Shown: positions 8,229 through 61,545, counted from the stretch's first letter. The stretch: DNA of 64,000 bases from Candidatus Saccharimonadales bacterium (GCA_038207115.1 JBBRAC010000002.1:57819-121818); one strand, 5' to 3'. Numbers and translations: made by a program. Notes: generated by a model from the sequence alone, not told the origin.

Positions 8229-8234
8229 AATTGC

Positions 8235-26011: not shown

Positions 26012-26012
26012 A

Positions 26013-28402: not shown

Positions 28403-28567
28403 TTGGTTGCAATACAATAACATATTTATTGTTTTTGAAGAGTATGAAAACTTACAATAACAAGCTATTTTACTGACTAAATACCTTTTTGCAGGCACGG
28501 GCATTTTGGCTTCCGCATTCGTCGAATGAAGTGCTCAGGGGATATGTGCGGTACAATCTACAGGTAC

Positions 28568-36246: not shown

Positions 36247-37863
36247 CTAAGGCTCCTGGTGTTCGGTTTGGCCCCACTTTGCTTCCCGCTTGAGGGGCCG
36301 GAGGTACTGCTGCAAAATGGTGGCCTTTTTCTCGCCCAGTAGATGTACCAAATCTTGGTCACGCGCCTGCATAACCCCACGCAAGCTTCCAAACGTGCGG
36401 ATGAGTTTTTTACGAGTCTGCGGGCCGATTGTCGGGATGTCATCAAGCATGCTGGCCGTTTGGTGCTTTACCTTAAGTACGCTGTGGTAGGTAACGGCAA
36501 AACGGTGGCTTTCGTCACGAATGCGCTGCAGCAGTTTGACTGCGTTAGTGTTGTGTGGCAGGTTTACCAGGATAAAATCGTCACTTTCAGTGGCAAAACC
36601 GCCCAGCCGGTGCATGGCCTCAATGTTCAGCGTTACATTACTCCCCCGCGCTGTGGATTCGGCAGGCGAAGTGTCAGATGATACGTTAGCTTCACCGGAA
36701 TTCGACATTCGGGCTTCGGGATTCGGTTTCCTAATAACGATTTGCTCTTCACGCTTGGCCAAACCTATAAACGGCAGCTTTTCGCAACCGGCGGCGTCGC
36801 GCGCCTGTATAGCTGCATCTAGCTGACCTTTGCCGCCGTCTATCAGCACCAGGCTGGGTTTGCCCCAGGCTTTTACATTCTTCTCGCTGAGTCGCCGTGC
36901 AAGCGTTTCGTTCATGTTGTAAAAGTCGTTGTTGTGCTCGAGCTTAGTTTTAAACTTGCGGTACTCGCCCTTGTCGCTTACGCCGTTGGTAAACACCACC
37001 ATACTGGCAACGACGTTTGTGCCCTGCATGTGGGAAATGTCGTAGCCTTCTATGCGGCGTGGGAAGCCCTGAAGCGTCAGCAAATCAACTAATTCACTCA
37101 GGGCGTGGTCTTTCGATATGTCCAAGAATTCTTTGTCGCTAAATATTACCTGTTTACCTAGGTTCTGCAGCGATGTCAGCTGATTGCGCAATTTGGCAGC
37201 CTGCTCAAACTGCTGGGCTTTCGAGGCCCGCTTCATATCGCGCTCGACTTCCTTCAGAATAAACGTGCGTTTGCCTTGGATGACGGCTATGAGTTTACGA
37301 AGGTTTTTGCGATAATCTTCCAGACTGGTTTTGCCTTCTTCCAGGCCCGGATCAAGGCCTAGGTGGTAGTGCAAACTGGCGCGCTTTTGACCCGGAACAC
37401 GGCGCGTGGCAAACGGAAATATGCGCCGCAGTAGCTTCAGCGCCTGGCGGACGCCATAGGTCGAGAAGTACGGACCAAAGTACATTGCACCGTCATCCAG
37501 CGGCCGGCGCGTCGTACCCACTGTAGGAAAATCGCTGTCGTAGTCGATGCGGATGTAGCTCATGGCTTTGTCATCGCGTAGCAAAATGTTGTAGCGCGGC
37601 ATATAGCGGCGAATCATTTCGGCCTCCAGAAACAGGGCTTCGAGCTCGCTTTCCACTATCATCCAGTCGGTGTCGTGAATTTCTTCTACCAACGCTTCTG
37701 TTTTGGGATCGCGGTTTCGAGACGCCTGGAAATACTGCCGAACGCGGTTACGTAGCACGGCCGCTTTGCCGACATAAATAATTTCGCCCGATGCAGACTT
37801 ATGAAAATACACTCCCGGCTCTTTGGGGAGGTCCTGTAGCTTGGACTCGAGTGCTTTGTTCAC
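36247..37863 (-). CDS. uvrC: excinuclease ABC subunit C
   Basis: GIY-YIG N-terminus GVYFHKSASGEIIYVGKAAVLRNRVRQYF. UVR region, endonuclease region and a C-terminal HhH (IPTIGPQTRKKLIRTFGS). Confidence 0.9.
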   Translation of the reverse strand: MNKALESKLQDLPKEPGVYFHKSASGEIIYVGKAAVLRNRVRQYFQASRNRDPKTEALVEEIHDTDWMIVESELEALFLEAEMIRRYMPRYNILLRDDKAMSYIRIDYDSDFPTVGTTRRPLDDGAMYFGPYFSTYGVRQALKLLRRIFPFATRRVPGQKRASLHYHLGLDPGLEEGKTSLEDYRKNLRKLIAVIQGKRTFILKEVERDMKRASKAQQFEQAAKLRNQLTSLQNLGKQVIFSDKEFLDISKDHALSELVDLLTLQGFPRRIEGYDISHMQGTNVVASMVVFTNGVSDKGEYRKFKTKLEHNNDFYNMNETLARRLSEKNVKAWGKPSLVLIDGGKGQLDAAIQARDAAGCEKLPFIGLAKREEQIVIRKPNPEARMSNSGEANVSSDTSPAESTARGSNVTLNIEAMHRLGGFATESDDFILVNLPHNTNAVKLLQRIRDESHRFAVTYHSVLKVKHQTASMLDDIPTIGPQTRKKLIRTFGSLRGVMQARDQDLVHLLGEKKATILQQYLRPLKREAKWGQTEHQEP

Positions 37864-37897
37864 CCCTATAGTATAATCTGTCTAGCTCTGAACTTGG

Positions 37898-38149
37898 TTA
37901 GTTTCGTGATTCGCATGTAGTGCAGGGAAAAGACTTGCCCAAGTTTCCCCTTGGGTAGAGATTGCCCAGTCTACGTCTGCGGATTGCCCCGGCCATCCGC
38001 AGACGAGGCGCCTTTTCGGAATGCTCTGGAATAGTCACCATGCCTGTTTTCGCCAAAATATCCCGGGTACTCTCATGTGGTTCGGCGGTTTTTAAGACCT
38101 CATCAAGCGTCAGAAACGGCGTTGGGGGTAAGGTTGATTTATGAGTCAT
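37898..38149 (-). CDS. hypothetical small protein
   Basis: 83-aa ORF immediately upstream of uvrC. No motif found. Confidence 0.25.
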   Translation of the reverse strand: MTHKSTLPPTPFLTLDEVLKTAEPHESTRDILAKTGMVTIPEHSEKAPRLRMAGAIRRRRLGNLYPRGNLGKSFPCTTCESRN

Positions 38150-38547
38150 CTACCATCGTTTTAGCATATAATTATAAGGCTGGTAAGAACCCGCTGTGAT
38201 ATGACTTGCGATTTTACCTGCTGGAGTCAGCAAAAATGCAATCCGCGCAATATACAGCAAAGTTTTAATAATACAAAAGATATTTGAAGATATTGTAATT
38301 TTGCTTACATTTCCGGTATAATTATTGTTAGCAAAAAGGTTGAGTAAGAATAAATTTCCATAGACTTGCTCGGTAGTCACAGAAATGTTAAAGTAAGCCC
38401 AAGATAAACATCTGTAAAAGAACGAATACCCTCGATTGTTGTTCGATTTCGCTACTGATGCCTCTTCTCTGCCATAACCAGTATCAAAACCGGACAAAAA
38501 TCCGGACTGTTGTTCGCCCTAACTCCGCTAGCCTAGGCACGTACATA

Positions 38548-38671
38548 GTTGTGGGCCGTAGTGTCGACTGACTCTTAGTCGATAGTGCGGCCCACAACCA
38601 CCTACCACCCCAGGTGTGCGTCGAGAAAGGAGCTCGAGCTTCAGGCACACACCTTAACAATTCGTGTTAAG
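38548..38671. promoter_or_regulatory. cluster of inverted repeats at the island's left edge (candidate oriT, parS or operator region)
   Basis: IR1 at 38548-38598: GTTGTGGGCCG...CGGCCCACAAC, with inner TCGACT/AGTCGA. IR2: AGGTGTG (38612-38618) with CACACCT (38648-38654), enclosing the palindrome AGCTCGAGCT (38631-38640). IR3: CTTAACA-ATTCG-TGTTAAG (38653-38671). Confidence 0.5.
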
Positions 38672-38721
38672 CAAACACAACCTCACCGATCCATCCGCGC
38701 AAGCAAGGAAGGGGCACGCGC

Positions 38722-40269
38722 ATGAGCGCCAATCCTCAGCACGACTCAACGCAAGTGGAAGAAGGAGGACGACCCAACTTGGGCCTATTCCTGCCGGATG
38801 CGGAGGAGAACACAGGCGCGACAACACCTGCCCCTGCTCCGACCACCAAACCCACTAGCTCCAGCACACCACCCCCCAAGACCGCCCCCACCACGAGGCC
38901 TCAATCGCCACGCAGGACACGGAGGGACGTCAAGCGTGCCCACAAGGCTGCCGCCAAAGCCGCCAACAGGGCCCGCAATGAGACTACCAAGTCACCCCGA
39001 GTATCTGGTGTGCCGGCCCGCAAGATCATCATCCGTACGATTCTCGTAGTCGTCGGCTTCGGTCTGCTGTACGTCTGGTACAGGCAGGGGGGGGGCACAT
39101 CACGAATCGTCAGCATCGGCCTGGCCGCCGTAATCGTCATCGGTTTGCTCTCGAGCAAGTACCTGGCAAAGCGGCGGGCCAACAAGGGCGACACCTCAGG
39201 GTTCATCGACAGATTGCCCGCATGGGTGACCGCTGGCAAGCCAATCGGCAAGGGACCGCGACGTCTGCTGTGGCTGGTGTACGTCCACTTGGGGCTCTAC
39301 AAGGCCAGGTGGATTCCCCAGCCGCGACCGCACGGTCTTCACCTCCGTCGCATCATTGAGTGGAGGAGATACATCGTCGAACAGCGTCAGCATTCGATGG
39401 CCATCGTCACGGTACACACCACCAAGGGTGGAGCTGCCAAGACGACGGTTTCGACGTGGTTCGCAGCAATCCTGATGTGGATCATCAAGCTGGTCGTCCA
39501 CGTCTTCGACACCGACAACGGTAAAGGCAAGGTCGCCAAACGGTTCGGCATCGAGCCCGACCAGACCATGTCCAGCCAGGAGGTCGTCAGGGAGGTCGTC
39601 CACTACAACTGGGGCCCAACCTACCAGGACCTAGTTCAGCGCGTTCGCGCAGATCTGGACACCGGCGTGATGGTGTTCCACTGCAGGGCCGGCGAGTCCA
39701 TCGAGAGCGGGGACGTCATCGAAACGCTCACCCGCGTCGCAACTACCTGTCACACTCTGGTGGTCGACACCGCACCCGGCTTCGACAGAACCGCCACAGA
39801 TGGTGTGATGCGGCTCGGCACTGTGCACATCTTGACCGGACGCTTCCCCTCCGAGGAGGATATGGACGACATCGGTCAGACCCTCAAGCACGAGCCCTAC
39901 CACCTATCCGAACGGCTCGACCAGGTCATCATCGTGGTCAGTGACGTCAACTGGCTCCACTTCAATACCCGTACCCAGTACGAGTTGGCGGAGATCAACG
40001 GAGTCGACCCTGAGCGCATCGTGCTCATCCCGCACATCCGCCACCTGGCTCGCACGCGAAACGTCATCATCAACGTACTTAGCCCCAAGGCCCTGTACGC
40101 GTGGGTACGTCTCGTACGCGTCCAGACAGCTGTGGCTGTGGCCTACAACCGCAATCACCCCGCTCGGACACTGCCTGGCGAAGTCACCAACACAACCGAA
40201 CAGCACCACCCTGAGCAGCACACGTCTGCCCAGGCAACCTCTGACTGCGATCCCGCAGGAAGGAAGTAG
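38722..40269 (+). CDS. membrane-anchored ParA/MinD-like ATPase with Pro/Lys-rich N-terminal extension
   Basis: Deviant Walker A motif VHTTKGGAAKTTVS and Walker B-like TLVVDTAPG. Two TM segments (IIIRTILVVVGFGLLYVWY, IVSIGLAAVIVIGLL) follow a ~95-aa P/T/K/R-rich tract. Confidence 0.55.
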   Translation: MSANPQHDSTQVEEGGRPNLGLFLPDAEENTGATTPAPAPTTKPTSSSTPPPKTAPTTRPQSPRRTRRDVKRAHKAAAKAANRARNETTKSPRVSGVPARKIIIRTILVVVGFGLLYVWYRQGGGTSRIVSIGLAAVIVIGLLSSKYLAKRRANKGDTSGFIDRLPAWVTAGKPIGKGPRRLLWLVYVHLGLYKARWIPQPRPHGLHLRRIIEWRRYIVEQRQHSMAIVTVHTTKGGAAKTTVSTWFAAILMWIIKLVVHVFDTDNGKGKVAKRFGIEPDQTMSSQEVVREVVHYNWGPTYQDLVQRVRADLDTGVMVFHCRAGESIESGDVIETLTRVATTCHTLVVDTAPGFDRTATDGVMRLGTVHILTGRFPSEEDMDDIGQTLKHEPYHLSERLDQVIIVVSDVNWLHFNTRTQYELAEINGVDPERIVLIPHIRHLARTRNVIINVLSPKALYAWVRLVRVQTAVAVAYNRNHPARTLPGEVTNTTEQHHPEQHTSAQATSDCDPAGRK

Positions 40270-40273
40270 CACC

Positions 40274-40699
40274 ATGCGTACAATCACCCAGCGCGTGCCG
40301 CGTCACCAAAGCCTGCGGGCTCTGCTGACCCTCGCGCTCGAGAAGATTTACCTCACCATCGTGGCGGCGACAGTCGTCGGCTGGATGAGCATGCAGCCGG
40401 CAACGGCCGCACCCACCCCCACGCCAACGCCAACGCTGAATGACATGTTCTCCGGCGGAACCGTAGCGCCAGAGGTCAAGGTGCCAATCCAGAACTCGGT
40501 CGCGACGTTCCTCTACGGAAGCGCAGCCGTCTTTCTGATCATCTTGGTTGCTGGGGTGGCCATGTCCGGCTTCGGAGAGAAGCCCAAGACGGCCAAGAAG
40601 ATGATGCTCGCCGGCGCCGCTGGCATCATCATCACCGCAGGTCCTGCCGTGATCATGCAGCTCATCCAGCACGGCGGCGCCCACCTCGCAGGCACCTGA
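40274..40699 (+). CDS. small two-TM secreted protein, VirB2/TrbC/PrgI-like
   Basis: 141 aa. Signal-like N-terminus ending ...QPATAAPTPTPTP, then two hydrophobic helices (AAVFLIILVAGVAMSGF, MMLAGAAGIIITAGPAVIM). Its position precedes the VirB6-like gene. ATG 40274 was used instead of ORF-track start 39941. Confidence 0.4.
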   Translation: MRTITQRVPRHQSLRALLTLALEKIYLTIVAATVVGWMSMQPATAAPTPTPTPTLNDMFSGGTVAPEVKVPIQNSVATFLYGSAAVFLIILVAGVAMSGFGEKPKTAKKMMLAGAAGIIITAGPAVIMQLIQHGGAHLAGT

Positions 40700-40782
40700 A
40701 CAACCCACCATCCGTAGGGGGCGGTTAGCCACCTCGCCGGCCGTCCCCTACGACCCTCCGCTCTAACACTGAGGAGATACTC

Positions 40783-42144
40783 ATGGATATTTGGGATCTA
40801 CTGAAGAGCCTGTTCAGCGGAGGCTTGTCTATCACGACTCCGCGTGACCTGATGCTGTCGTACATCTACGGCAGCATGGTTGACTCGCCCACCCCCGACA
40901 TCAATGTTCAGCAGTACTACGACTGGCTTTCGATGTTCCGCTGGATTGCCCTAATCCTTCTGGTGGTGGAACTCTGTATCCGCCTCTGGAGGGGTACAAG
41001 TAACGACTCACTGGGCTACGAGATGAAGCAGTACGGGTTCAGCCTCGGTTTCTACGTGGTTGCCCTGCCTTCCATCCCGGCCTTTCTGATGGGTGCACGC
41101 CTTTTCGGCAACGCCCTTGGAAAGTTCTTCCTGACTGGGTTCGTCGGCGGCGACAAGAACGCCTTCATGACCTCTGTTTCGGCCCTAAGCGGCGTCGCAC
41201 CTGTCGATGTCGTGCTAAGCATCATCCAGTTCGTTTTCTTGGTGGTGCTTACCCTGTCGCTGTACGCCATCCCTGTCATGTTCGTCGTAAGCTGCATCCT
41301 CTTCATGGTGGGTGTCAGTACCCGGTGGATGGGCGCCTTCGGCGACAAACTGTTCGGGCTAAGCCTGCTCGTCACGCTGTACGGCGCGCTCGGCAATGGG
41401 ATCATCATGGCCATTCTAGGCGTAGGTGTAGCAGCCGGTAAGCTCGTCTTTCCGGATGACGCCTACGCTCGTGCCAGTGTGAACACGGTGGTCATCATCG
41501 TGGCCGCATCGGTCACTGGGTGGGTCCTCAAGAGCGTCAAAGAAGACGTTAAGGCCATGGTCAAAAACGCTAAGGATGGTTACCAAAACGTCCGCGGCAA
41601 GTTGCACGGCGAAACCCCCCAGTACGAACGCGCAGGCGGCAAGCGACAGGTGGATGAGACCGTAAACGCCAACACGCGCCACGGCTCAAACAACGACGCC
41701 AATGCTGGCAGCTCCGCCAATACTGCGCCTAACAAGGCACAGGGTGACCAAGCTGCATCCCACGAGGCAACACCAGCGGAAACCCCGCGACACTCCTCAA
41801 CAGCAGCCCGTTCGCTGACCCGCAGGCAGTCCGATCAGCCACAACGCGGTCAAGAGCCCAACCCAGACGCTTCCCAAGCGTCTCAACCGGCCTCCGCCAC
41901 ACCTGACCGGAGTACGTCTCGGCAGGAAACTGGGTCACCACGGACGTCAGAGCCTGTGCCACAGGAGAGGCCTTCGGCCCCTCACAGCGCGCAGGCAGCG
42001 TCATCGCCCAGGCCTACCACCACCGGTGGTCAGGCTCACACGTCTGCCATTCGTGAAGAACCATACACCGGATCCCGTCATGGGCTACCGGAAACGGAAT
42101 ACACGACCAAGCAGACCCAGACCGCAGAAAGGAGTCGGGCATGA
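40783..42144 (+). CDS. polytopic membrane protein, VirB6/TrbL-like, with disordered C-terminal tail
   Basis: At least 6 hydrophobic segments in the first ~250 aa. The C-terminal ~180 aa are rich in S/P/T/Q/A/R. Confidence 0.45.
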   Translation: MDIWDLLKSLFSGGLSITTPRDLMLSYIYGSMVDSPTPDINVQQYYDWLSMFRWIALILLVVELCIRLWRGTSNDSLGYEMKQYGFSLGFYVVALPSIPAFLMGARLFGNALGKFFLTGFVGGDKNAFMTSVSALSGVAPVDVVLSIIQFVFLVVLTLSLYAIPVMFVVSCILFMVGVSTRWMGAFGDKLFGLSLLVTLYGALGNGIIMAILGVGVAAGKLVFPDDAYARASVNTVVIIVAASVTGWVLKSVKEDVKAMVKNAKDGYQNVRGKLHGETPQYERAGGKRQVDETVNANTRHGSNNDANAGSSANTAPNKAQGDQAASHEATPAETPRHSSTAARSLTRRQSDQPQRGQEPNPDASQASQPASATPDRSTSRQETGSPRTSEPVPQERPSAPHSAQAASSPRPTTTGGQAHTSAIREEPYTGSRHGLPETEYTTKQTQTAERSRA

Positions 42145-43703
42145 CAACCTACGACCCGGTACATACCGCACCCCGGAAACGGCCCGTCCGATTCCACCCG
42201 TTCAACTTCATTTGTTGGGGATTGGGTGTGGCCATCGGGCTGACGGGTCTGTACCTGACCCAGCAGCTACAGTGGCTACTGGCATTCCCGCTGGGCTTCG
42301 TGGTAGGGCTACCCGTGAAAGACTACGGCTCGCCCCACGCCTGGCTGCTCAGCAAGTGGAGAATCCGACGCGCCTGGAAACGCGCCCATGGAGTGCTCCG
42401 ACGTCCACCGCTCAGCGCGACCGGCAAGAAGGGCACGCCTCTGACAAAGCTGGACCATGTCCGTCTCGTCGAGGCCAACATCCTAGATGGCCCGGCCCTG
42501 ACCAAACTACCGCTCTACACCACCACCAGTGGCGATGACCTCACTGTCCTACTACTGATCTCGGGCGCCAGCCCAGATTGGATTAGCGGCGACGGTAACG
42601 ATAAGTTCGGGTGGGACCTCCGATTCATCGCAGCGATGAAGCACGCCTTCGACGCCACGCGCACTCCCGCTATCAGCTACGCCATGGGACGCATCCAGCG
42701 CCCCTCCAACCGCGAGCCAGGGCTGCTCTACAACAAACGCCGTGGCAACCAGGACATCTTCTGGGCGGCCGCTGAGAACCATGTCCATCCTGAGGACGCA
42801 GCCAAGCAGGCATCAAGTCCCGAGGAGCTTGCCAAGGCCACGATTGGGTCACAAATCCATGACAACTTTGACAAGATTCATGCCATCGCAGGGGGGTCAA
42901 CCCACTATGCCGCTCTCACTCTGCCCTGGCCCACGGGACACTTCGGTCGCAAGGTTGACCTGGCCAATCCAATCGCCTTCCGCAAGTCGGCGCTCTGGAA
43001 AACGCTCTCTAAGGTAGCCGCCAGCTACCGAGCCTGCGGCATCCCAGCCAGACTGCCCTCCACCGCAGAGGCCGAGGACTTCTGGACAACTGCTCTCAGC
43101 CACACCGAACTGCCCACCCAGCAGTTCTACCAACAACTACGAGGAATAGCGGGCGAGGCATCAGAGTCAAACGGCATGCTACGCGTTCCGATGTCGGCTG
43201 CTTGCACCAAGGAGGGAGTCATTCGCATCGGGGGGACATACATGATGGCGGGCTACGCCACCGCGTTCAACAGGAGCAATCTGTACCCCGGCTTCCAGCC
43301 GAACCTGGCCGTTCTCGACAACGACGTGGCATACACGTTTGCGACCTATGTCGATGCCAAACACATCGGTAGCGAGAAGCACCGCGCTCGGGAAGCCGAA
43401 CGTGGCAGGCGCATGTTGCGAGACTTGAGCGGAGGTGCTCTGAACAAGGGCGTCTCTGACCCAGCCCATGAAATGGCGCTGGCTGATGACATCAGCTACC
43501 GCCGGGAACTGGAAGATGCTGGTCAGCGCTCCGGCGATGGCTATTTCCTGTTCACCGTCATGGCGAGAAGTGACGAGGATGTCCTCATCAAGTGGGAAGA
43601 CACCATCACCCAACTCGGTGGGATCTACGAGATCGAACAACTCTATGACCCAGAGGAGGTGTTCGACACCGTCCTCGCACAACTGTGCATCAAGGTCAGG
43701 TAG
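42141..43703 (+). CDS. conjugation-module protein with N-terminal TM hairpin (possible VirB3/VirB4 N-terminal-domain equivalent)
   Basis: 520 aa. Two N-terminal TMs (FNFICWGLGVAIGLTGLYL, LLAFPLGFVVGLPV). The start overlaps the previous stop (ATGA at 42141-42144). No NTP-binding motif. Confidence 0.3.
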   Translation: MTTYDPVHTAPRKRPVRFHPFNFICWGLGVAIGLTGLYLTQQLQWLLAFPLGFVVGLPVKDYGSPHAWLLSKWRIRRAWKRAHGVLRRPPLSATGKKGTPLTKLDHVRLVEANILDGPALTKLPLYTTTSGDDLTVLLLISGASPDWISGDGNDKFGWDLRFIAAMKHAFDATRTPAISYAMGRIQRPSNREPGLLYNKRRGNQDIFWAAAENHVHPEDAAKQASSPEELAKATIGSQIHDNFDKIHAIAGGSTHYAALTLPWPTGHFGRKVDLANPIAFRKSALWKTLSKVAASYRACGIPARLPSTAEAEDFWTTALSHTELPTQQFYQQLRGIAGEASESNGMLRVPMSAACTKEGVIRIGGTYMMAGYATAFNRSNLYPGFQPNLAVLDNDVAYTFATYVDAKHIGSEKHRAREAERGRRMLRDLSGGALNKGVSDPAHEMALADDISYRRELEDAGQRSGDGYFLFTVMARSDEDVLIKWEDTITQLGGIYEIEQLYDPEEVFDTVLAQLCIKVR

Positions 43704-43741
43704 TCCGGTCACGGCTTAACACGAAGTACACGGTGTGTGAA

Positions 43742-43791
43742 GGGGGGCGGTAGCTCAAAAAGCAGTACGCATTTATGCGTAACCGCCCCCC
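43742..43791 (+). terminator. GC-rich hairpin without U-tract
   Basis: GGGGGGCGGT (43742-43751) pairs perfectly with ACCGCCCCCC (43782-43791). It encloses a second hairpin, TACGCAT-TT-ATGCGTA (43766-43781). Confidence 0.45.
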
Positions 43792-43936
43792 TAGCACAAC
43801 CCTTGAGCCAGTTTTCTAAATTTACTTCAGAAAGTATTTAGCAAACTAGCCCAGGGTGTCGTGACAACCTACTTGCACGCATGTACAACCCTGTGAGTTC
43901 CTTAACAACCCAACCCTCCTGAAAGGAGCTACCCAA

Positions 43937-45469
43937 ATGGGTACCCACCTGTTCGACCGGATTGAACCCTTTAAGGGCCCGCTCGACCGGTTCCTCATCC
44001 ACAACTGGCTCCTGACAGCGCCGCTCTTGATGCCAGGCTTCCCACTCGCCATTACCGACGATGCGGACTACGCACCCATTGGTTTTGACCTGACACTGCT
44101 CAAGAGCCTCTTCGCCGACGTCGAGGCAAAGTGGATAGGCGTACTTGGAGAGCAAGGCTTCGGTAAGACCTTCCTGAGCAATGTGTTCCTGATGCTCGCG
44201 ATGGGTGCTGATGTAGGTGGAGGATCGGCACGTTGCGCCATCAACTCGGTCAAGCGCAACCAGATGAACCGACCCGAGACCGCACCGCTGGTCGAAGATT
44301 TGCTGCGCTGCACCATCATCGACCCGCGCAGGATGAAGCTGAACCCTTTGTCCCGCCTCATCGGCCTGACGTTCGACGAGCAGTTTACGCTAGTACGCCG
44401 GATGGTTGAGGTCTCGCAACGGGAAGAGTTCTCCCTGCAGAAGAAGAACGTCCTGAAGCAGGCGCTCAAGGAAGTCAGGGAGCACGAAAGACCCTCATTC
44501 CCCGAACTCAGCCGGATTCTGTCCGACTACGAGCCTCTAGACGAAGACCTGCCCGTGAACCCGCTGGTAGGACCCGACGATGTAGCGCTGCCCGGACTGG
44601 AAGCCAGCGGGCCAAACGGCCGCCAGCCTAAGGCAGGTAGCCTACTCGAACAGTTCCGGGACGAACTGCGCCACGCCGCTTTCGAGCTGAAGCTAGCCAT
44701 CGATGTGTTCAATGAAGGTGACTTCTTCAGCATCTTCAGCGGCGAGAGCGATGAGATTGTCGAGCTGATGAGCCAGCGAGCCGTCTCCTACGACATGAAA
44801 GGCATCGAAGGTGACGTGCGTTCCATCATCGAACTGGTGCTGGGAGCTATCCAGATGTCGGCCATCAGGCCCGACCCAGATGACCCCATCAACCCTAACC
44901 GGCCGAAGCACCCGGAGCGCATCCCACACTACATCGTCACGGACGAAGCCTACACGCCGTGGGAGAACTCCTTCTTCGCCGAGGCCGAATACGTCAAGAT
45001 GAAGACCCAACGCGAGCACGGGATCGTCGGCATGACGATTTTCCACCGCTTGCGTGACCTGCAGGACGCCATCGCCAACCCAGTCGCAGCCAAAAAAGCC
45101 GCGAACTCGCTCAACGAGATCACGGTCTGGTGCATCTTCAGGCAAAAGAGGGCGGAGATTCCAAACATCCGAGCCTTCTTCGGCTTGGCGGAGTACATCC
45201 TGCAAGACTTGGTGCACCTGCCGAAGGGCCACTTCTGGCTCATCGTTCCAGGCCAGGCGCCACGGCGATGCTTCGTTGTCGGTACAGATCTGATGATCAA
45301 TACCTTCAACACCGACGCGGCCAACGACGCGCTCTTGCAGCTTTGGTTCGCAACTCGTGACCCCAAGGTGCTCCAAAAGTACCTGATTGCCACGACCCCA
45401 GAGGTCATCGAAGACGAAGAAGAACAGGGAGCAGGTGTACTCTATGAACGGACGCTTGCGAAGGTCTGA
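43937..45469 (+). CDS. VirB4/TraE-like conjugation ATPase (C-terminal ATPase-domain-sized)
   Basis: Walker A motif VLGEQGFGKTFL and Walker B motif HYIVTDEAYT. SD (GAAAGGAG) upstream. Confidence 0.5.
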   Translation: MGTHLFDRIEPFKGPLDRFLIHNWLLTAPLLMPGFPLAITDDADYAPIGFDLTLLKSLFADVEAKWIGVLGEQGFGKTFLSNVFLMLAMGADVGGGSARCAINSVKRNQMNRPETAPLVEDLLRCTIIDPRRMKLNPLSRLIGLTFDEQFTLVRRMVEVSQREEFSLQKKNVLKQALKEVREHERPSFPELSRILSDYEPLDEDLPVNPLVGPDDVALPGLEASGPNGRQPKAGSLLEQFRDELRHAAFELKLAIDVFNEGDFFSIFSGESDEIVELMSQRAVSYDMKGIEGDVRSIIELVLGAIQMSAIRPDPDDPINPNRPKHPERIPHYIVTDEAYTPWENSFFAEAEYVKMKTQREHGIVGMTIFHRLRDLQDAIANPVAAKKAANSLNEITVWCIFRQKRAEIPNIRAFFGLAEYILQDLVHLPKGHFWLIVPGQAPRRCFVVGTDLMINTFNTDAANDALLQLWFATRDPKVLQKYLIATTPEVIEDEEEQGAGVLYERTLAKV

Positions 45470-45995
45470 TCGGCTGGTTCTCGGCGTGCTTGTGGTAGTT
45501 GCACTCATCTGCTTCGCACTGTGGAGCGTCTCCAGAAATACTACCTCGGGAGCGCCACCCCAGGCCACTTCCTCGCCGACCAGCAGTCCGACTGCTACCG
45601 CAACGGCCACCAAGCAGCCCAGCGATCTCGAGCAAGCGGTTTACCGCTTCGAGAGCGTGTACGCCCTGCCCCCAAGCAGTAGGCGCACCGAGCAGCTGAA
45701 GGCCATGACCACCCCGGACGGTTTCGCGGCCCTCAACACTGAGACGACAGGTACCTCGCATGCCGAACAGGCTGCCGGCGCCGTCACCGCTCAAGTTGAG
45801 ACAAACCTCTCATCCGTCCAGTCTGAGGCCTTCGACGACCCCAACGTCGTCTCGGTGTCCTCTACTGTCGTCATCAACACGTTCCGAAACGGCCAAAAGC
45901 TGAACACTGTTCCTGTAATGCGCATCGCCTCCTGGGTGAAGCAGAACGGGCAGTGGAAGCTGGCAGCCGTACAGCCTAGCGCAACTTCGACCTAA
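45444..45995 (+). CDS. membrane-anchored NTF2-like protein, VirB8/TcpC-like
   Basis: N-terminal TM (LVLGVLVVVALICFALW), a S/P/T linker, and a ~130-aa C-terminal domain ending NGQWKLAAVQP. ATG 45444 overlaps the 3' end of the ATPase gene. Confidence 0.35.
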   Translation: MNGRLRRSDRLVLGVLVVVALICFALWSVSRNTTSGAPPQATSSPTSSPTATATATKQPSDLEQAVYRFESVYALPPSSRRTEQLKAMTTPDGFAALNTETTGTSHAEQAAGAVTAQVETNLSSVQSEAFDDPNVVSVSSTVVINTFRNGQKLNTVPVMRIASWVKQNGQWKLAAVQPSATST

Positions 45996-46007
45996 GGAGG
46001 TGAGTTT

Positions 46008-47525
46008 GTGCGCATCGGAAAGTTTTTTGTCTTGCCAGTCCTAGCAATCGGCATCATCGTTGCCGGCATCACAGGAGGAGCCAACCAGGCACTACCCGGG
46101 CTCCTCAACCAGGCCTGCAGCCAGCAGAGCACGAGTTTCAACGCCGTGCAAGTGACACTGGGGAGCGCAAGCTCATCCAGCTCACCGGAGCAGCAGGCCA
46201 ACGCCAAGATCATCATCGGCGTCGGGCTCGCCCGAGGTAGGAGCCAGCGCGACATCAAAATCGCCCTGATGACTGCCTTGCAAGAGTCCGGCCTGCGCAA
46301 CCTCCCCTACGGCGACCGAGACAGCCTGGGACTCTTCCAGCAACGGCCTTCAGTCATCGCGTGGGGGACAGCCTCGCAGATCATGGATCCGACGCATGCG
46401 TCGAACAAGTTCTATGAGGCGCTCGAAAGAGTCACCAACCGCGACTCAATGCCTCTAGGAGCTGTGGCGGAAGCTGTTCAACGCCCCGCCGCGGGAGCCT
46501 ACCAGACCCCGGGCAACTCCTTCATGGCCAAGGAACCGGCTGCCAACGCCCTTCTGGCTGGCAACAGCGCCAGTCTGGCTAGCAGTCTAGTAGTAGCACC
46601 GGCCGTGCAGTTCTCGCCCTCACCCTGCTCGACGAACTCCATTACCGCTGGCAACCCCAGCTCGGTGGAAATCGCCGTTCAGGCAGCTCTTGCCGAACAG
46701 GGCAAGCCGTACCAGTGGGGGAGTGGCCCGAGCGATGCAAGTTTCGACTGCTCGGATCTCATGCAGTTCGCCTTCGCCAAAGCGGCCGTTAAGCTGCCAC
46801 GTGTGGCCAGCGCCCAGTACAGCTTCGGCGTTCCAGTACCCAAGCCAGGGTCTGGTACGCTCGCCGAGTGGCTGAAGGTGCTGCAACGCGGCGATCTCAT
46901 CTATTGGACGAACTCAGCGCAGGCCACGTCGCCAAGCCAAATCGTTCACGTTGCCATGTACCTCGGCAACGCCCAGATGATCGACGCACCACGGTCCGGA
47001 AAGTTGGTCGGCGTCAAGCCCATCTACGGTGACACGGCAGGTCTATGGTTCTTCGGAGCCAGCCGGCCCATCTCGACGGTCACCACCGCCCTGGCCAGTA
47101 GCATCAACCCCGCTCTGGTTAAGGACGGCTGGCAAGCGCCGCTCAAGACCAAGCTAGTAGTCACCTCACCGTTCGGGATGCGCGTCCACCCCATTACGGG
47201 CATCCTTAAGCTCCACGACGGCACCGATTTTGCAGCTGCGACTGGCACACCAGTCTACGCCGCAAACAGCGGAACGGTCTCTACCCAAGTCACGGCGGCA
47301 GTCGGGCTTGTCGTAACGATCGATCATGGCGGGGGTGTCATCACCAAGTACGAACATCTCAGTCGGTTCGTGCTTACCGGCCCGGTCCAAGCCGGCCAGC
47401 TCATCGCCCTCTCGGGCAGCACCGGACAGTTCACGACTGGCCCACACCTCCACTTCACCGTGGAAGTAGACGGCAAGCCGGTCAACCCCATCGACTTCAT
47501 GCGTCAGCATGGATTGACCCTCTGA
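46008..47525 (+). CDS. three-domain cell-wall hydrolase (transglycosylase-like + NlpC/P60 + M23)
   Basis: N-terminal region: YGDRDSLGLFQQRPS...WGT. NlpC/P60: GKPYQWGSGPSDASFDCSDLMQFAF...HVAMYLG. M23: HDGTDFAAATGTPVYAANSGTV...DHGGGVITKYEHL...GSTGQFTTGPHLHFTV. GTG start with SD (AAGGAGGTG). Confidence 0.8.
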   Translation: MRIGKFFVLPVLAIGIIVAGITGGANQALPGLLNQACSQQSTSFNAVQVTLGSASSSSSPEQQANAKIIIGVGLARGRSQRDIKIALMTALQESGLRNLPYGDRDSLGLFQQRPSVIAWGTASQIMDPTHASNKFYEALERVTNRDSMPLGAVAEAVQRPAAGAYQTPGNSFMAKEPAANALLAGNSASLASSLVVAPAVQFSPSPCSTNSITAGNPSSVEIAVQAALAEQGKPYQWGSGPSDASFDCSDLMQFAFAKAAVKLPRVASAQYSFGVPVPKPGSGTLAEWLKVLQRGDLIYWTNSAQATSPSQIVHVAMYLGNAQMIDAPRSGKLVGVKPIYGDTAGLWFFGASRPISTVTTALASSINPALVKDGWQAPLKTKLVVTSPFGMRVHPITGILKLHDGTDFAAATGTPVYAANSGTVSTQVTAAVGLVVTIDHGGGVITKYEHLSRFVLTGPVQAGQLIALSGSTGQFTTGPHLHFTVEVDGKPVNPIDFMRQHGLTL

Positions 47526-48007
47526 AGAAGGAGATTGGAACAAACACCGCTGGATTACCAGCAAAACCCACAGTGGTTCTGGTGGGAACGAGTGTGCACT
47601 ACGCGTGCGCAGCTAGTACCCTAGAACCCTCAGAGGATTATCGTCCTCTGCCAAACCCAAGATACGGCCCGCCGGTCCGTGTGATCTCACAAGATCATAA
47701 ATACCGGCTACAACTTAAGTTCTGAAACATCGTTTAAGCACTTAAGCCGTATGATTTCGTAAGGTGGCTACGGGATTTTTTACGAGATTTTCGCAGTTTT
47801 TCATGTGGTATAAGTTGGATTCGCTTGGTTGGCATGTTTCGCAAATCAGGGCCAGAATAGATATGAAATGGGTTCAATGTTTATTCAACCAAATCCTGTC
47901 TGCTATTCATTGAACCCCATTTATTTTTTAAGCAATGTTGAGCTCCGTTTTTCAGGCCTAAACAAAAGCAATTTGACGAGCTAGGTTTGCTAGGCATAAA
48001 ATATGCT

Positions 48008-49141
48008 ATGGAAAACACTTACCCGCTAGCTCTCACATTTGACGATGTTTTGCTGAAGCCCGGATATTCCGACTTTGAGCGTGAAATCATCGACCTTTCT
48101 ACTAACGTAACGCGCAACATCCGGCTCAAATGTCCATTGGTTGCAGCCCCTATGGACACGGTCACCGAAAGTGGACTGGCGATTGCTCTTGGAAAACTTG
48201 GCGGCATCGGCATTATCCACCGTAACCTGAGCATCGAAGACCAAGCGGCGGAAGTTGCAAAAGTCAAACGAGCAAAACAGCTCGTTGGTGCGGCCGTGGG
48301 GTCTAGCAACGGCTATGAAAGGCGTGTCAAAGCACTGGTAGCAGCTGGCGTAGACGTCCTACTGGTCGATAGCGCCCATGGTTACTCGGCCAAAGTTATC
48401 AGCACCGTACAGCACATAAAAGCTCACTACAAAGTTGACGTTATTGCCGGCAGTGTAGCCACAGCCGAAGGTGCCGAGGCGTTGATTGATGCAGGCGCAG
48501 ATGGGCTACGCGTAGGGATGGGGCCAGGTGCTATTTGCTCAACCCGTATCGTTTCCGGTATGGGCGTACCGCAATTAAGCGCCCTACTTGATACCGTTCA
48601 AGTTGCCGCCTTACACGGTGTACCCGTTATTGCTGATGGCGGTATTATCCACTCCGGCGACGTCGTTAAGGCTTTGGCCGCCGGCGCTTCGTGCGTCATG
48701 ATGGGCCGCATGTTCGCCGCCACCGTGGAATCTCCCGGAAAGACCGTGCCTTTAAAATCGTCTCAGGTACCCGGCCGGTTCCAAAACATTATCGATGGCT
48801 CAGACGAATATTTGTTTAAAGAGTACCGGGGCATGGGTTCGATTGCGGCCATGAAACGCGGCATGGAAGTCAGTTCCGAAGACGAATTCCACGGCAAAAA
48901 TTACCAGGGCGATGTATTAGTGGCCGAAGGCGTCGAAGGGCTGGTTCCCTGCTCTGGGACTGTCAAAGATTTGGTTGACCAAATGCTCGGCGGCGTCACC
49001 AGCGGTATGTATTACGTCGGCACGCCGACCATAGCGGGGCTCTGGCAAAACGCGCGCTTTATGCGTATTACCACGGCGAGCCTCAGCGAAAGCCATCCGC
49101 ACGATTTATTTATTACTAACGGCGGTGGAAATTACCAGTAG
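48008..49141 (+). CDS. guaB: IMP dehydrogenase family protein lacking the CBS/Bateman subdomain
   Basis: Sequence: [65 protein letters not shown]. ...VAKVKR joins directly to [10 protein letters not shown], where the CBS pair normally sits. Confidence 0.75.
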
Positions 49142-52151: not shown

Positions 52152-53500
52152 TTACTTTAGTCCAGAAGACTTATTGTAGCGCGCATCAGCTATCTGTTGT
52201 TCTCGAATCGCTTGAGCCGCCTGGTCTAGAGGAGTAACCGTGATAGTTAACACATCAGGCGCGCTAAGGCTTTTGAGAGTGCTTGATCTGACAACGGCGT
52301 TCATTTTTTCGTCATGTAGGACATTCGTGGTTTCGGCCCAGTGTTTAGTTGCTTCATCATAGCCGTTAAATGCCGGTGTATACTCGATTTTATATTCTTG
52401 GCCTGCTCCAATAGCTTCGGCCTCAATTTGATAATTAGGCTCCCATGCTGTTACGCCATTTTTAGACTCGCCGTGCTTTCCATGTCGGCCCAATCCTATG
52501 ACAACTTTAGATATTGTTTTGTCGATTTTTTTCAGGGGGTCGTTATCACTTACGTTTAGAGAAACACCATAAATACCTCCTGGCTCGGCTGACAATGAAT
52601 AGCTCACTCCAGGTTGGGGGTTAGAGAGTACCTTGAAGCGCTGGGGTAAAAGCATGTTCAGGGCATTCGGGGTGAAGGCAGAACTGTCCTCGGGCGGAAG
52701 AGCCGACCCCATCACACCCTCAGCGCCGTAGAAATTTTCCCTGTCGCTATCCGGTTGACGCGCTACGCTGCAGCCCCGAACTACAAAATCAGCAATGTCT
52801 TCTTCTCGGCGGGGGGATTCCTGCCTATCAATCAAGTCACCTCTCGCTACAAGTTTGTCGCAAGTGAGCTCAGTGACATGTGAAAGGCCTGATTGGTGCC
52901 CCGATTCGTGCAGAATAATTCCAGGAGAAAATTTGTCGTGCTTAATGTGTGGATTGTATGCATTAAATGGCTTTGTCTGTAGAAACGCATCGCCCAGCGC
53001 TCCATTGCACATAGGCTTTTGGTTTAGCAGGACGTGTAGCAAAACACTATCACCCAAATGATGTTCTAGTCGGGTTAGATTATTTATATTTTTCAGGTCA
53101 GAATCGGTATAGCAGGAATCGGCCGTTTTTGTCTTACCCTCAGGAAGTACAGATACATGAAATATATTCTCGAGACTTATGTGTGCCGCACCATACGTTT
53201 CCCAGCGCATTCGAGTATCGGCCTGATGAAAAGCTTCCGTTATGTCTGCGGGCTTGTAGCCTGTGGTTGCGCCGAAATGATCATTTACGAGCACTGCGTA
53301 ATTATTGTCATCATGAGACATCGGTCGCAGGAAAGGAACGGACGCTATGTTAGGAGAGTCAGTAGAGGGGGGGCGCCCCATACACTAGGGGAATTATAAG
53401 CGGCTCCTAGCAACTCAAATCCACCTGTCAGCGCTAAGCCAGCAACAACAACACCGATTGATCCGGCACGGGAAAGTGACGGTTGTTCATGAGAGCCCAG
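52152..53500 (-). pseudogene. metzincin-type zinc metalloprotease gene, frameshifted at a homopolymer and truncated by IS30
   Basis: HExxHxxGxxH motif: ILHESGHQSGLSH. A TM-anchor-encoding segment (SIGVVVAGLALTGGFELLGAAY, ORF 53533..53345) is out of frame with the body (53381..52152) across G7 at 53367-53373 (C7 on the coding strand). One extra C would fuse the two. The upstream frame has no native start before the IS30 end. Confidence 0.55.
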
Positions 53501-53504: not shown

Positions 53505-54610
53505 AAATCTGAAGTGCAACAAACAGATCTCACTGGTCTAGGCCAGGCGTTAGCCTGGCTGGTACTGTGTTGGTGTATGAATACCTACACACATATCGCT
53601 AAGCTAGAACGGTACGAGATTTCAATATTAATAAAGCGTGGGCATAGTGTAGCTGAAGTGGCGCAGGAAATTGGGCGCGACAAAAGCAGCATTTACCGAG
53701 AGCTTAGGCGCAACAAAGTTGCCGGAGCTTACAACGCTAGAAAGGCCGACCACAAGGCCTACGTCACTCGTAAGTACGCCAAGTACCAAGCCATGCGTAT
53801 AATTGGAGATATGAAGCTACGAGAATATGTTGACACTTGTCTGTTAGACAGAGATTGGTCACCAGAACAGATTGCTGGTCGCATTGCGAGAGAGACTGGC
53901 ATGCAACCAATTTCTGCACCTACCATCTACAAATATATTCGCAGCCCGTACGGTCGTAAGCTCGAGCACGAGCTTGAGCTTGCCAAGAAGAAGCGAACAA
54001 AACGTTGGCAGCGCAAAGTCACACAGTTAGAGGGTCGGGTATTCATTGACGCTCGCCCAGAGGCCGTGAGCATGCGTCAGCAATATGGTCACTGGGAAGC
54101 TGACTTTATTGTCAGTGGCAAACCTTACGGGATGGCCTCGTTACTCGTGCTCCACGAGCGCGTAAGCCGTTACACGCTCGTACGTAAACTCAGTGCCCGT
54201 ACCATTGCTGAGGTCGAGGATGCACTGGTCACAATGACGAAAGGCATTGGCCCATTTAAAACCCTGACCATTGACAACGACATTGCATTTGCTCGGCACT
54301 TCAAGCTCAGTGAACTACTCGAAACGCCAGTTTTCTTTACCCATCCCTACCACTCATGGGAGAAAGGTGGTGTCGAAAATGTGAACCGATTGATTCGACG
54401 CTACGTCCCAAAAAGCTGTGATATATCTGTGTTTACAGACGAAGAAATCGCTTCATATCAGCAAAAGATTAATGATATGCCGAGGAAAGTACTTGGCTAC
54501 GAAACAGCTCAGGAAGTGTACGATAGCTATCGGCAACAAGCACTAGATGAAAGGACAAGATATGAACAATACGTCTAATAATTTACAGTTGGCTGTTGCA
54601 CTTGAGGGTT
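53505..54610 (+). mobile_element. IS30-family insertion sequence (ends approximate)
   Basis: Imperfect terminal inverted repeats: CTGAAGTGCAACA at 53509-53521 versus the reverse complement of 54594-54606 (CTCAAGTGCAACA). A single transposase gene lies between them. Target-site duplication was not resolved. Confidence 0.7.
53577..54578 (+). CDS. IS30-family transposase
   Basis: HTH region: GHSVAEVAQEIGRDKSSIYRELRRN. DDE region: HWEADFIV...LTIDNDIAF...HSWEKGGVENVNRLIRRY. Confidence 0.9.
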   Translation: MNTYTHIAKLERYEISILIKRGHSVAEVAQEIGRDKSSIYRELRRNKVAGAYNARKADHKAYVTRKYAKYQAMRIIGDMKLREYVDTCLLDRDWSPEQIAGRIARETGMQPISAPTIYKYIRSPYGRKLEHELELAKKKRTKRWQRKVTQLEGRVFIDARPEAVSMRQQYGHWEADFIVSGKPYGMASLLVLHERVSRYTLVRKLSARTIAEVEDALVTMTKGIGPFKTLTIDNDIAFARHFKLSELLETPVFFTHPYHSWEKGGVENVNRLIRRYVPKSCDISVFTDEEIASYQQKINDMPRKVLGYETAQEVYDSYRQQALDERTRYEQYV

Positions 54611-61231: not shown

Positions 61232-61545
61232 GCCACTACACCTACCTCTGTAGCTTGCTAGCGGTCATCGGGCTGCTGGTGATTACGGACGGCCGCTATA
61301 AGCTGGCCTTCTTCGCTAACTGGCGGCAGACGGCCAAGGTGCTGGGTACGGCGATGCTTTTTTTCCTAGCATGGGATAGCCTGGGTGTTCGGCTCAAGAT
61401 TTTTTATCCCGACAACTCTGCCTATGCGCTGCACGTTATGGTTTTGCCCGGCGTGCCGGTGGAAGAAGGGCTGTTTCTGTTTTTGTTTACCTACCTAACG
61501 CTGCTACTTTGGAGGGGTTGTGTACACCTACGTCTTGCTCAATAG
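61228..61545 (+). CDS. lycopene cyclase-domain small subunit (CrtYe/CrtYc-like)
   Basis: 105-aa 3-TM protein. Overlaps the crtI stop (ATGA). Paired with a second small subunit. Confidence 0.65.
   Translation: MSHYTYLCSLLAVIGLLVITDGRYKLAFFANWRQTAKVLGTAMLFFLAWDSLGVRLKIFYPDNSAYALHVMVLPGVPVEEGLFLFLFTYLTLLLWRGCVHLRLAQ

Follow-up and report, generated by a model that had tools for sequence, protein, structure and literature searches.

We analysed a stretch of 64,000 nucleotides from a Candidatus Saccharimonadales bacterium (GCA_038207115.1, JBBRAC010000002.1:57819-121818), called here the window; positions are counted from its first letter. Between uvrC (36247-37863, minus strand; identified by Pfam) and a gene for an IMPDH/GuaB-like protein without a CBS insert (47987-49141, plus strand), the window carries a GC-rich cassette of seven open reading frames (ORFs), all on the plus strand (38722-47525), whose products include a predicted VirB4-type ATPase and a predicted cell-wall hydrolase and which probably encode an apparatus related to type IV secretion systems (T4SSs). 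A preliminary description of this DNA, made from the sequence alone, had reported seven co-oriented genes, and a second, independent gene caller found them at the same positions.

Composition and assembly of the cassette

In 1-kb intervals across 39001-47000 the GC content is 0.568-0.616, against 0.50-0.55 in the neighbouring intervals and 0.38-0.56 in the window as a whole. The complete cassette (38722-47525) has a GC content of 0.601 vs 0.479 in the rest of the window, which bears out the GC-rich island of the preliminary description; the AT-rich junction mentioned there is visible in the sequence on the left side (about 38150-38500). The excess lies mainly at synonymous sites, GC at third codon positions (GC3) being 0.735 in the cassette vs 0.532 in flanking genes (n = 18), and GC at second codon positions (GC2) 0.469 vs 0.410. 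A Shine-Dalgarno (SD)-like site precedes 7/7 cassette genes vs about 10/36 flanking genes (Fisher p = 6e-4), a comparison in which the flank start codons are those of the longest ORFs and in which internal operon genes require an SD site regardless of ancestry. At least 10 flanking genes show a TAnnnT box 6-16 nt 5' of the start codon, which fits leaderless transcripts; uvrC itself, with a TATACT box just 5' of its GTG start, is apparently leaderless. These counts agree with the distinction drawn earlier between SD-led island genes and leaderless flanks.

An abrupt GC step with AT-rich junctions on both sides, in a sequence that comes from a metagenome-assembled genome (MAG), is what would be expected if a GC-rich foreign fragment had been fused to a Saccharibacteria contig during assembly. 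We hold such a chimera to be extremely improbable. A Logan contig from SRR19962014, made with a different assembler, is 100% identical to the window, base for base, over 17,738 bp that include both junctions. The adjacency of uvrC and cassette was moreover seen again in two other samples (SRR27955498 and SRR27308737). The cassette with its junctions is therefore no assembly artefact.

A VirB4-type ATPase and its candidate partner

ORF5 (43937-45469, plus strand; 510 aa) carries the two motifs already pointed out in the preliminary description, GEQGFGKT (Walker A) and VTDEAY (Walker B), and both occupy invariant positions in 12 homologues. Pfam, NCBIfam, PHROG, PADLOC and PDB-sequence searches gave no match that identifies its family, and PDB sequence and profile searches returned only Walker-A-level matches, to type III secretion system ATPases. 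An AlphaFold2 model was built from the 12 homologues (pLDDT 75). Its best Foldseek match is the VirB4 C-terminal domain of Thermoanaerobacter (4AG5/4AG6, E = 5e-12, TMt 0.67-0.70), followed by DndH, HerA, TrwK, Cag-beta (1.5e-7) and TrwB (1.6e-5). When the family profile was aligned by hhalign with Pfam-positive VirB4 proteins (AAA_10/TraG P-loop), 385 columns of their C-terminal domain were matched with a probability of 99.6% (E = 6e-25). Profile and modelled fold together identify ORF5 as a VirB4 homologue, a predicted VirB4-type ATPase that consists of the C-terminal P-loop domain only, with a helical insertion, and is devoid of the N-terminal domain. It is the sole HerA/FtsK-superfamily ATPase found in the window, and it matches VirB4 better than TrwB or Cag-beta.

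The gene upstream, ORF4 (42141-43703, plus strand; 520 aa), encodes a protein in which a helical hairpin at the N-terminus (residues 20-56) precedes a soluble body of mixed alpha/beta structure. ORF4 has no match in Pfam or NCBIfam, and word-indexed homologue searches, even with a profile, returned just three proteins. In Foldseek, a model made from three sequences (AlphaFold2, pLDDT 48) has exclusively TrwK/VirB4 chains as hits 1-12 (E = 5e-4 to 5e-3, TM-score about 0.3), the next hit having E = 0.17; hhalign detected no relationship between the ORF4 family and the VirB4 N-terminal region. On the basis of the model, the helical hairpin and the position 5' of the ATPase gene, we tentatively propose ORF4 as a candidate VirB4-N-domain-like (TrsD-like) partner of the ATPase. 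A TrsD-like protein adjoining virB4 is the commonest T4SS component reported in Patescibacteria (PMC12102498).

Cell-wall hydrolase and other cassette proteins

ORF7 (46008-47525, plus strand; 505 aa) has a signal/transmembrane anchor followed by the three domains that had been recognised in the preliminary description: an N-terminal lytic domain (about 44-184), endolysin/transglycosylase-like with ES...GLFQQ motifs, an NlpC/P60 domain (232-349) and an M23 domain (402-494). Pfam matches are 1.4e-25 for M23 and 3.8e-17 for NlpC/P60. In PHROGs, residues 44-184 match the endolysin family phrog_29272 (E = 5e-24), and residues 59-497, which span all three domains, match the tape-measure family phrog_10030 (E = 3e-52). 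The protein also matches NlpC/P60 structures of Tn916-like Orf16/17, and its NlpC/P60 domain resembles the RipA/RipB/RipC/DIP1281 types of NCBIfam. By its domains, ORF7 is a predicted cell-wall hydrolase and VirB1 analogue. Residues 60-340 are 35-45% identical to C40/M23 proteins from Streptomyces, Pseudonocardia, Leifsonia and Citricoccus plasmids, and the best plasmid matches are exclusively from Actinomycetota (E 1e-30 to 1e-35). This actinobacterial/actinophage affinity could be due to domain ancestry or to adaptation to actinobacterial peptidoglycan. Multi-domain muralytic enzymes likewise end the transfer operons of Gram-positive conjugative elements (ICEBs1 CwlT, Tn916 Orf14, pIP501 TraG), but these combine a glycosidase-like domain with NlpC/P60 or CHAP, whereas ORF7 has an extra M23 domain. 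Lytic modules of actinophage tape-measure proteins are comparable too, given the phage tape-measure match across all three domains of ORF7, but ORF7 is found without associated virion or DNA-transfer genes.

In the first protein, ORF1 (38722-40269, plus strand; 515 aa), a disordered Pro/Ser/Thr-rich N-terminus and two transmembrane-like segments (residues 102-143) accompany a P-loop domain of ParA/MinD type, whose Walker A motif is the deviant TKGGAAKTT. The single sequence matches Pfam CbiA at E = 3e-4, under the curated cutoff, and NCBIfam ParA at E = 4e-4. With the family profile, FleN/MinD/ParA structures are reached (E = 2e-5), and the match covers about 230 profile positions (183-414). 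The profile match shows ORF1 to be a predicted ParA/MinD-like protein, in line with the membrane-anchored ParA-like ATPase proposed before. The P-loop is degenerate or absent in the homologues of three related loci (L002, L004 and L087).

ORF2 (40274-40699, plus strand; 141 aa) has a signal-like N-terminal segment, a PTPTPT linker and two C-terminal hydrophobic helices with a short basic loop between them, a topology that is VirB2-pilin-like by hydropathy and alignment. The window protein has no family match in Pfam; one of the 33 cassette-family members scanned, taken to be an ORF2 homologue, matches PF18895 (T4SS_pilin, E = 7.7e-4). The preliminary description had called ORF2 VirB2/PrgI-like: the topology agrees with the VirB2 half of this label, and the PrgI half is not retained.

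Two further membrane proteins complete the set. ORF3 (40783-42144, plus strand; 453 aa) is polytopic, with 6-7 transmembrane-like segments in residues 48-249 and a low-complexity tail of about 200 aa. It has no PDB sequence or profile match, and its L003 homologue has a precomputed match to PF19590 (TrbL_3) that was not reproduced at E <= 0.01; we regard ORF3 as a candidate VirB6/TrbL-like protein. ORF6 (45444-45995, plus strand; 183 aa) has an N-terminal transmembrane anchor, a Pro/Ser/Thr linker and a C-terminal domain of about 110 aa with weak NTF2-like signals (Pfam DUF4440, E = 0.0076; Ring_hydroxyl_B, E = 0.075), and is a candidate VirB8-like protein; profile comparison with the PDB gave no informative match for it. 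Searches of Pfam, NCBIfam, PHROGs and PADLOC with ORF2-ORF6 gave nothing beyond these ORF6 signals. Of the VirB6-like and VirB8-like identities suggested earlier for ORF3 and ORF6, the former is weakly favoured by the transmembrane segments and the unreproduced TrbL_3 match and the latter by DUF4440 at E of about 0.008.

Host lineage and insertion site

The best matches of the IMPDH protein (Pfam IMPDH, 1.7e-126) among GTDB species representatives are 70-76% identical and come from Candidatus Saccharimonadales/Saccharibacteria MAGs, and the window UvrC is 80% identical to the UvrC of one of these relatives (L011). Such identities to Saccharimonadales MAGs show the predicted host to be a Saccharimonadales (Saccharibacteria/Patescibacteria) bacterium, so that the episymbiont evoked in the preliminary description is borne out as a lineage. 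In four of those Saccharimonadales genomes uvrC lies just 5' of the IMPDH gene, in divergent orientation. The two genes are 83 bp apart in L011 and L009, where the site is empty, and small gaps are found in L014 and L016; downstream of IMPDH, the relatives have rhodanese and ABC-transporter genes as in the window (conserved synteny). Because uvrC and IMPDH are directly adjacent in close relatives, the stretch of about 10.1 kb between the end of uvrC (37863) and the start of the IMPDH gene (47987) corresponds to an indel. The embedded island of the preliminary description is retained in this sense, as an insertion or deletion relative to close relatives. A scan of 80 other loci, out to 10 kb from IMPDH, brought up no relative of the cassette. 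The cassettes of L003 and L004 adjoin uvrC genes that are 74-78% identical to that of the window and 82% identical to each other.

The AT-rich left junction (37898-38497, minus strand) lies within the indel and outside the GC-rich cassette. The ORF list and translations give two small ORFs there (37898-38149, 83 aa, and 38150-38497, 115 aa; minus strand), which are of doubtful coding status and have no match in Pfam, NCBIfam or PHROG, and sigma-70-like sites occur at 38293-38322 (plus strand) and 38200-38171 (minus strand). The equivalent position of L004 (1283-1749) is occupied by a HicA/HicB toxin-antitoxin pair. The uvrC-cassette junction seems to accumulate small accessory genes.

Distribution and divergence of the cassette family

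A word-indexed search of 5.8 billion proteins with ORF5 returned 12 homologues (28-45% identity), 0 of them with a Pfam domain. An exhaustive comparison of the family profile with 1.84 billion cluster representatives gave 336 relatives at E <= 1e-3 and 28 at E <= 1e-30, mostly of 420-510 aa and without a Pfam match; the ATPase family is thus broader than the 12 proteins. No relative of the ATPase was found by tblastn in 72,556 PLSDB plasmids, nor in GTDB representatives (single-protein query), JGI metagenome contigs or IMG/VR.

The order of genes encoding the ParA-like, pilin-like, polytopic and ~520-aa proteins, the ATPase, the ~190-aa protein and the hydrolase is kept in 10 further loci, even in the distant L087 (complete 1.0-Mb genome CP023991.1) and L094. 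A conserved gene stands at the ORF6 position in the loci that reach past the ATPase gene; in L094 and L095 no gene was called for this ~190-aa protein. Sequence divergence within this layout is high. The ATPases of the window, L003 and L004 are mutually 35-38% identical despite their similar uvrC neighbour, and the window ATPase is nearer to those of L089 and L090 (44-45%, other flanks) than to those of the uvrC-linked L003 and L004. The host lineage can be placed for 2 of the 10 other cassette loci, L003 and L004. We conclude that the cassette is an accessory module within Saccharibacteria, very fast-diverging or exchanged, with a recurrent uvrC-proximal location.

Across the family the cassettes have 55-61% GC. 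Wherever a flank could be used for comparison, the cassette was the richer in GC, although by just 2-4 points in L005, L089 and L094. The cassettes of the window, L003, L004 and L087 also have a clearly elevated GC3, which is not the case in L002. Raised GC is therefore a property of the family and not the mark of one recent import. In L087, the genes to the left of the cassette (2536-4916), encoding a Band_7 protein and a 345-aa protein, have GC3 values of 0.92 and 0.83 vs 0.74 in the cassette, so that the compositional anomaly can reach past the seven genes.

These data bear on the foreign, high-GC actinobacterial ancestry put forward in the preliminary description, that is, recent uptake by horizontal transfer from the episymbiont's actinobacterial host. 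The 60% GC and GC3 of 0.74 in a window of 48% GC, the consistent use of SD sites and the all-Actinomycetota plasmid matches of ORF7 residues 60-340, with their RipA/RipB/RipC/DIP1281-type hits, would be in keeping with such an origin. Actinobacterial plasmid clusters, like the cassette, end in a protein of about 213 aa followed by a C40 peptidase, and a Leifsonia plasmid has a ParA-like ATPase adjoining an M23 hydrolase. An example is plasmid p1 of Pseudonocardia sp. DSM 110487 (NZ_CP080522.1, 71.7-79.1 kb), where small membrane proteins and a P-loop ATPase are encoded upstream and where the operon ends with a ~200-aa protein and a C40 hydrolase 35-39% identical to ORF7 60-340. However, such clusters are plasmid-borne and have no ParA-like first gene in the same order, and the 911-aa ATPase of p1 falls outside the ORF5 profile. 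The ORF5 family profile recognised nothing in the Pseudonocardia plasmid VirB4-like protein beyond the Walker A motif, and when the cassette profiles were run against two actinobacterial plasmid clusters the ParA-like protein alone was matched. Identity to any actinobacterial protein is at most 45%, and this for the hydrolase alone; the ATPase has no match in the plasmid collection. The relatives of the cassette that were examined, close and distant, all lie in contigs of about 50-58% GC, from Saccharibacteria or from an unplaced host, and share its gene order, and two of them adjoin a uvrC 74-78% identical to that of the window. Homologues from the same lineage and of similar composition have thus largely been found, with the host placed for L003 and L004 only, and we consider a recent actinobacterial import very unlikely.

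Mobility

The Pfam scan covered 40 window ORFs, namely the 7 cassette genes and 33 others of at least 115 aa, which are most but not all of the larger ORFs; those outside the scan include 3623-4084, 4186-4656, 6849-7334, 17199-17606 and 20289-20753 (some 135-165 aa). Among the 40 ORFs there is no relaxase, no type IV coupling protein (T4CP)/FtsK-like ATPase and no recombinase/integrase, as the preliminary description had noticed for the island. No relaxase, T4CP or integrase gene stands beside the seven genes in the 10 other cassette loci either. A search across 37700-48100 for att-like or terminal direct repeats gave short chance-level matches only, and there is no tRNA gene at the insertion site, the nearest being at 22.5 and 28.6 kb. 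Since no relaxase or T4CP was found, classical conjugation is unlikely.

The cassette could nonetheless belong to an integrative and conjugative, or integrative and mobilisable, element (ICE/IME), intact or decaying, whose relaxase, T4CP and integrase are located elsewhere or have been lost and which still moves among Saccharibacteria with a uvrC-proximal preference. The site is occupied or empty in close relatives, L011 (UvrC 80% identical) being without the cassette, and three genomes carry very different cassettes (ATPases 35-38% identical) beside uvrC genes that are 74-82% identical. The affinity of the window ATPase for cassettes with different flanks would also be explained, as would cassette GC3 values above those of the flanks in most loci and the HicAB pair at the L004 junction. 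Furthermore, the contigs L090, L091 and L092, from three sequencing runs, break off at one and the same base, 107 bp beyond the stop codon of the hydrolase gene. The element would, however, have to be one for which neither the scanned window ORFs nor the neighbourhoods of 10 other cassettes provide an integrase, relaxase or T4CP, which has no flanking direct repeats, whose cassette-only contig shows no terminal overlap, and which has no relatives in PLSDB or IMG/VR. We judge this explanation unlikely, though it deserves more weight than any other alternative considered here. The extreme divergence between cassettes implies that any exchange must be old or rare.

L090 (8.4 kb) contains the cassette almost exactly. 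Together with the common end point of the three contigs, this may mean that the flanks vary or are repeated in that population.

To the right of the cassette, at a distance of about 6 kb, the window encodes a 354-aa protein (53514-54578) with an HTH_38 domain, which we take to be typical of IS30-family transposase N-termini, and no catalytic domain was detected in it. Its gene is adjoined by that of a 409-aa protein without family match (52152-53381). At the other end of the window, positions 1-13500 have a low GC content (38-46%) and encode a helicase with an MrfA Zn-binding domain, a C-5 cytosine DNA methylase (2522-3541) and a zeta-toxin-like kinase (4751-5266); this segment may be a separate defence or mobile island.

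Conserved elements upstream of ORF1 and ORF5

The control region upstream of ORF1 (38532-38663, plus strand) comprises an imperfect 38-nt inverted repeat (38532-38614), a hairpin GGTGTGC...GCACACC (38613-38653) and the motif CCTTAACAA (38652-38660), 70 nt 5' of the ORF1 start codon. In the general form gCA-CCTT[A/C]ACA[A/T]-C, this motif lies 37-70 nt 5' of ORF1 in seven loci (window, L002, L003, L004, L006, L089 and L090), where it is preceded by a hairpin of the GTGCGC...GCGCAC type.

A second structured region separates ORF4 and ORF5 (43704-43936, plus strand). Just 3' of the ORF4 stop codon lies a GC-rich, terminator-like hairpin (HP1, 43742-43791), followed by two neighbouring hairpins (HP2, 43801-43855; HP3, 43852-43893), the unpaired motif CCTTAACAAC (43900-43909), a CA-rich spacer and the SD sequence GAAAGGAG (43921-43928). 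This gap is 173-289 bp long in 11/11 cassette loci (window, L002-L006, L087, L089, L090, L093 and L094), whereas the other genes abut. Across these gaps the motif takes the form (C)CTTAACA(A/T)C. RNAalifold recovers the base of HP2 with 11 pairs, 8 of them with compensatory changes, and the z-scores of the minimum free energy of folding are -1.95 to -5.99 in 10/10 sequences tested, whose boundaries were picked by eye. The element has no Rfam match. The strict motif occurs 0.023 times per kb in other Saccharibacteria loci and gives 10 hits in 21 target regions, an enrichment far beyond chance.

Taken as a sigma-70 -35 box, CCTTAACA has no consistent -10 box 17 nt downstream. A -10-like reading of the motif (TAACAT/TAACAA) is possible, and the motif could act as part of a promoter, as the site of a regulator or as a signal in the RNA. 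The presence of the same motif and hairpin before ORF1 and before ORF5 suggests one regulator or promoter type for ORF1-4 and ORF5-7. The cassette is thus probably expressed as two co-regulated units, ORF1-4 and ORF5-7, each placed after a hairpin plus CCTTAACA element.

A T4SS-like apparatus and its possible role

We consider it rather probable that the region encodes a chromosomal, relaxase-less, monoderm-type T4SS-like apparatus of a Saccharimonadales bacterium, and that it represents a rare, very divergent family with a fixed seven-gene order. The Gram-positive/actinobacterial-type T4SS core of the preliminary description is upheld as monoderm-type by the VirB4-type ORF5, the ParA/MinD-like ORF1 and the ORF7 hydrolase. 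The suggestion made there, that a secretion or contact apparatus has been domesticated, is a reasonable one, and for Patescibacteria it is an already published view (PMC10633639, PMC12102498). T4SSs of this phylum are chromosomal, near-universal and mostly relaxase-less, with VirB2-like pilins, a TrsD neighbour and peptidases or lysozymes next to virB4 (PMC12102498), and in S. epibionticum epibiotic growth requires the relaxase-less T4SS (PMC10633639, Wang 2023). A review covers these relaxase-less systems of Patescibacteria (PMC12857230).

In the apparatus that we envisage, ORF3, ORF4, ORF5 and ORF6 would form a cytoplasmic-membrane translocon, with ORF3, ORF4 and ORF6 as the platform. ORF4 would dock a hexameric ORF5 ATPase, and this split VirB4 pair would power assembly. 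ORF2 might polymerise into a short pilus or conduit, ORF7 would open peptidoglycan, either that of the cell itself or that of its actinobacterial host, and ORF1 may position or scaffold the complex. By analogy with the S. epibionticum T4SS, the whole would serve the epibiotic interaction, through contact, the export of effectors or an exchange of macromolecules, and not conjugation, and the cassette would be an accessory, fast-diverging island that is kept or exchanged within Saccharibacteria.

Several points weigh against this interpretation. Three of the seven assignments, those of the VirB6-like, VirB8-like and ORF4 VirB4-N-like proteins, are weak (pLDDT 48, TM-score about 0.3, Pfam E about 0.01), and none of the cassette proteins gave a VirB3 or PrgI match in Pfam or NCBIfam; the N-terminal helical hairpin of ORF4 could replace VirB3. 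The function is assigned wholly by analogy. The window represents 64 kb of a 177-kb contig, and a relaxase or T4CP may lie elsewhere; in Patescibacteria, the T4CP gene is generally distant from virB4 (PMC12102498). Finally, raised GC3 and the presence/absence pattern would fit a mobile element as well.

The closest characterised counterpart is the T4SS of S. epibionticum (SEML1_0006-0019; PMC10633639, survey by Quinonero-Coronel et al. 2025, PMC12102498). Both systems are chromosomal in the same host phylum/class and have monoderm (MPF_FATA-like) components, a VirB2-like pilin, a hydrolase downstream of the ATPase and, in the cassette as candidates, a VirB4-N-like protein by the ATPase and an NTF2-like protein, with no relaxase or coupling protein in the cluster and a presumed non-conjugative role in host interaction. 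The S. epibionticum VirB4 is a 612-aa protein with a TraG P-loop (K12063), whereas ORF5 has 510 aa, the C-terminal domain only and neither a Pfam nor a KEGG-type signature. S. epibionticum has PrgI (PF12666), for which, as for VirB3, the cassette gave no match, six PF18895 pilins against one, and a VirB6 of 1088 aa against the 453 aa of ORF3; its locus also encodes a 998-aa membrane protein and an NTF2-like protein. The cassette, for its part, has an additional first gene, for the membrane-anchored ParA/MinD-like protein, a different gene order, a GC3 about 0.2 over background and the conserved CCTTAACA/hairpin elements. It occupies the variable uvrC/IMPDH site, whereas the S. epibionticum locus tags (0006-0019) place that T4SS at the genome start. 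No cassette protein of the window matches the canonical signatures (TraG P-loop VirB4, PrgI PF12666, PF18895). Given this absence, the split VirB4, the single pilin and the ParA-like gene, we file the cassette as a T4SS-like variant of the Patescibacteria theme and do not count it as an established member of the published clade.

One may ask whether the cassette is simply the organism's own copy of the canonical Patescibacteria-clade T4SS, an orthologue of SEML1_0006-0019 that has been relocated and evolves fast. The same logic of pilin, VirB6, VirB4-N-like protein by VirB4, NTF2-like protein, downstream hydrolase and missing relaxase would speak for it, as would the reach of the ATPase profile to 336 cluster representatives. 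Yet the top 150 profile hits include no protein of about 600 aa, the TraG-type VirB4, PrgI, large VirB6 and six pilins stand against an ATPase reduced to the C-terminal domain, no PrgI match, one pilin and a ParA-like first gene in the cassette, and the cassette is missing from the site in relatives and from the surroundings of IMPDH in the 80 other loci. Such an orthologue is about as improbable as an actinobacterial import, or slightly more so. The T4SS-like variant that we favour can also be set beside VirB4 machines without a relaxase or coupling protein in the locus, such as Bordetella Ptl and Brucella VirB, which deliver effectors, and H. pylori ComB and archaeal Ced, which take up DNA. 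These have a diderm or archaeal architecture, and VirB4 is their only sequence relation to the cassette.

The concept of a relaxase-less T4SS has already been published for Patescibacteria; the present family, with its layout, divergence, variable locus, GC3 bias and cis elements, appears to be undescribed. A further-reaching proposal, which we advance tentatively and hold to be possible rather than probable, is that environmental Saccharibacteria possess a second class of T4SS-like machine with a split VirB4, a ParA/MinD-like organiser, a single pilin and an actinobacterial/actinophage-type hydrolase. It would be a hypervariable accessory at a uvrC-proximal hot spot, a determinant of host range or penetration under arms-race selection, and controlled at two points by the hairpin/CCTTAACA elements. 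Saccharibacteria/Patescibacteria depend on host bacteria, and a relaxase-less T4SS is among the few machines shown to be essential to that lifestyle. If the proposal is true, a second, strain-variable cassette would give a handle on host specificity, as strains with and without it can be compared at one locus. Its resemblance to enzymes of actinobacteria and actinophages makes the host wall a likely target of ORF7, and regulation could be approached experimentally through the conserved cis element. Pfam, NCBIfam and PHROGs do not recognise the family (ORF2-ORF6), and surveys based on CONJscan-type profiles probably miss or under-count it.

Neighbouring genes

Two other groups of genes were observed in the window. 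Positions 57838-62654 carry a carotenoid-type set, encoding a polyprenyl synthetase, a phytoene/squalene synthase, a phytoene desaturase-like amine oxidase and a UbiA prenyltransferase, which seems unusual for a lineage described as short of biosynthetic pathways. The second group (14205-15932, 24017-28504 and 18868-19797) encodes a trehalose-synthase-like glycosyltransferase, a GH81 glucanase, a cellulose-synthase-like GT2 protein with a HlyD-like partner and a CHAP-domain protein. This envelope/polysaccharide gene cluster could bear on host interaction too.

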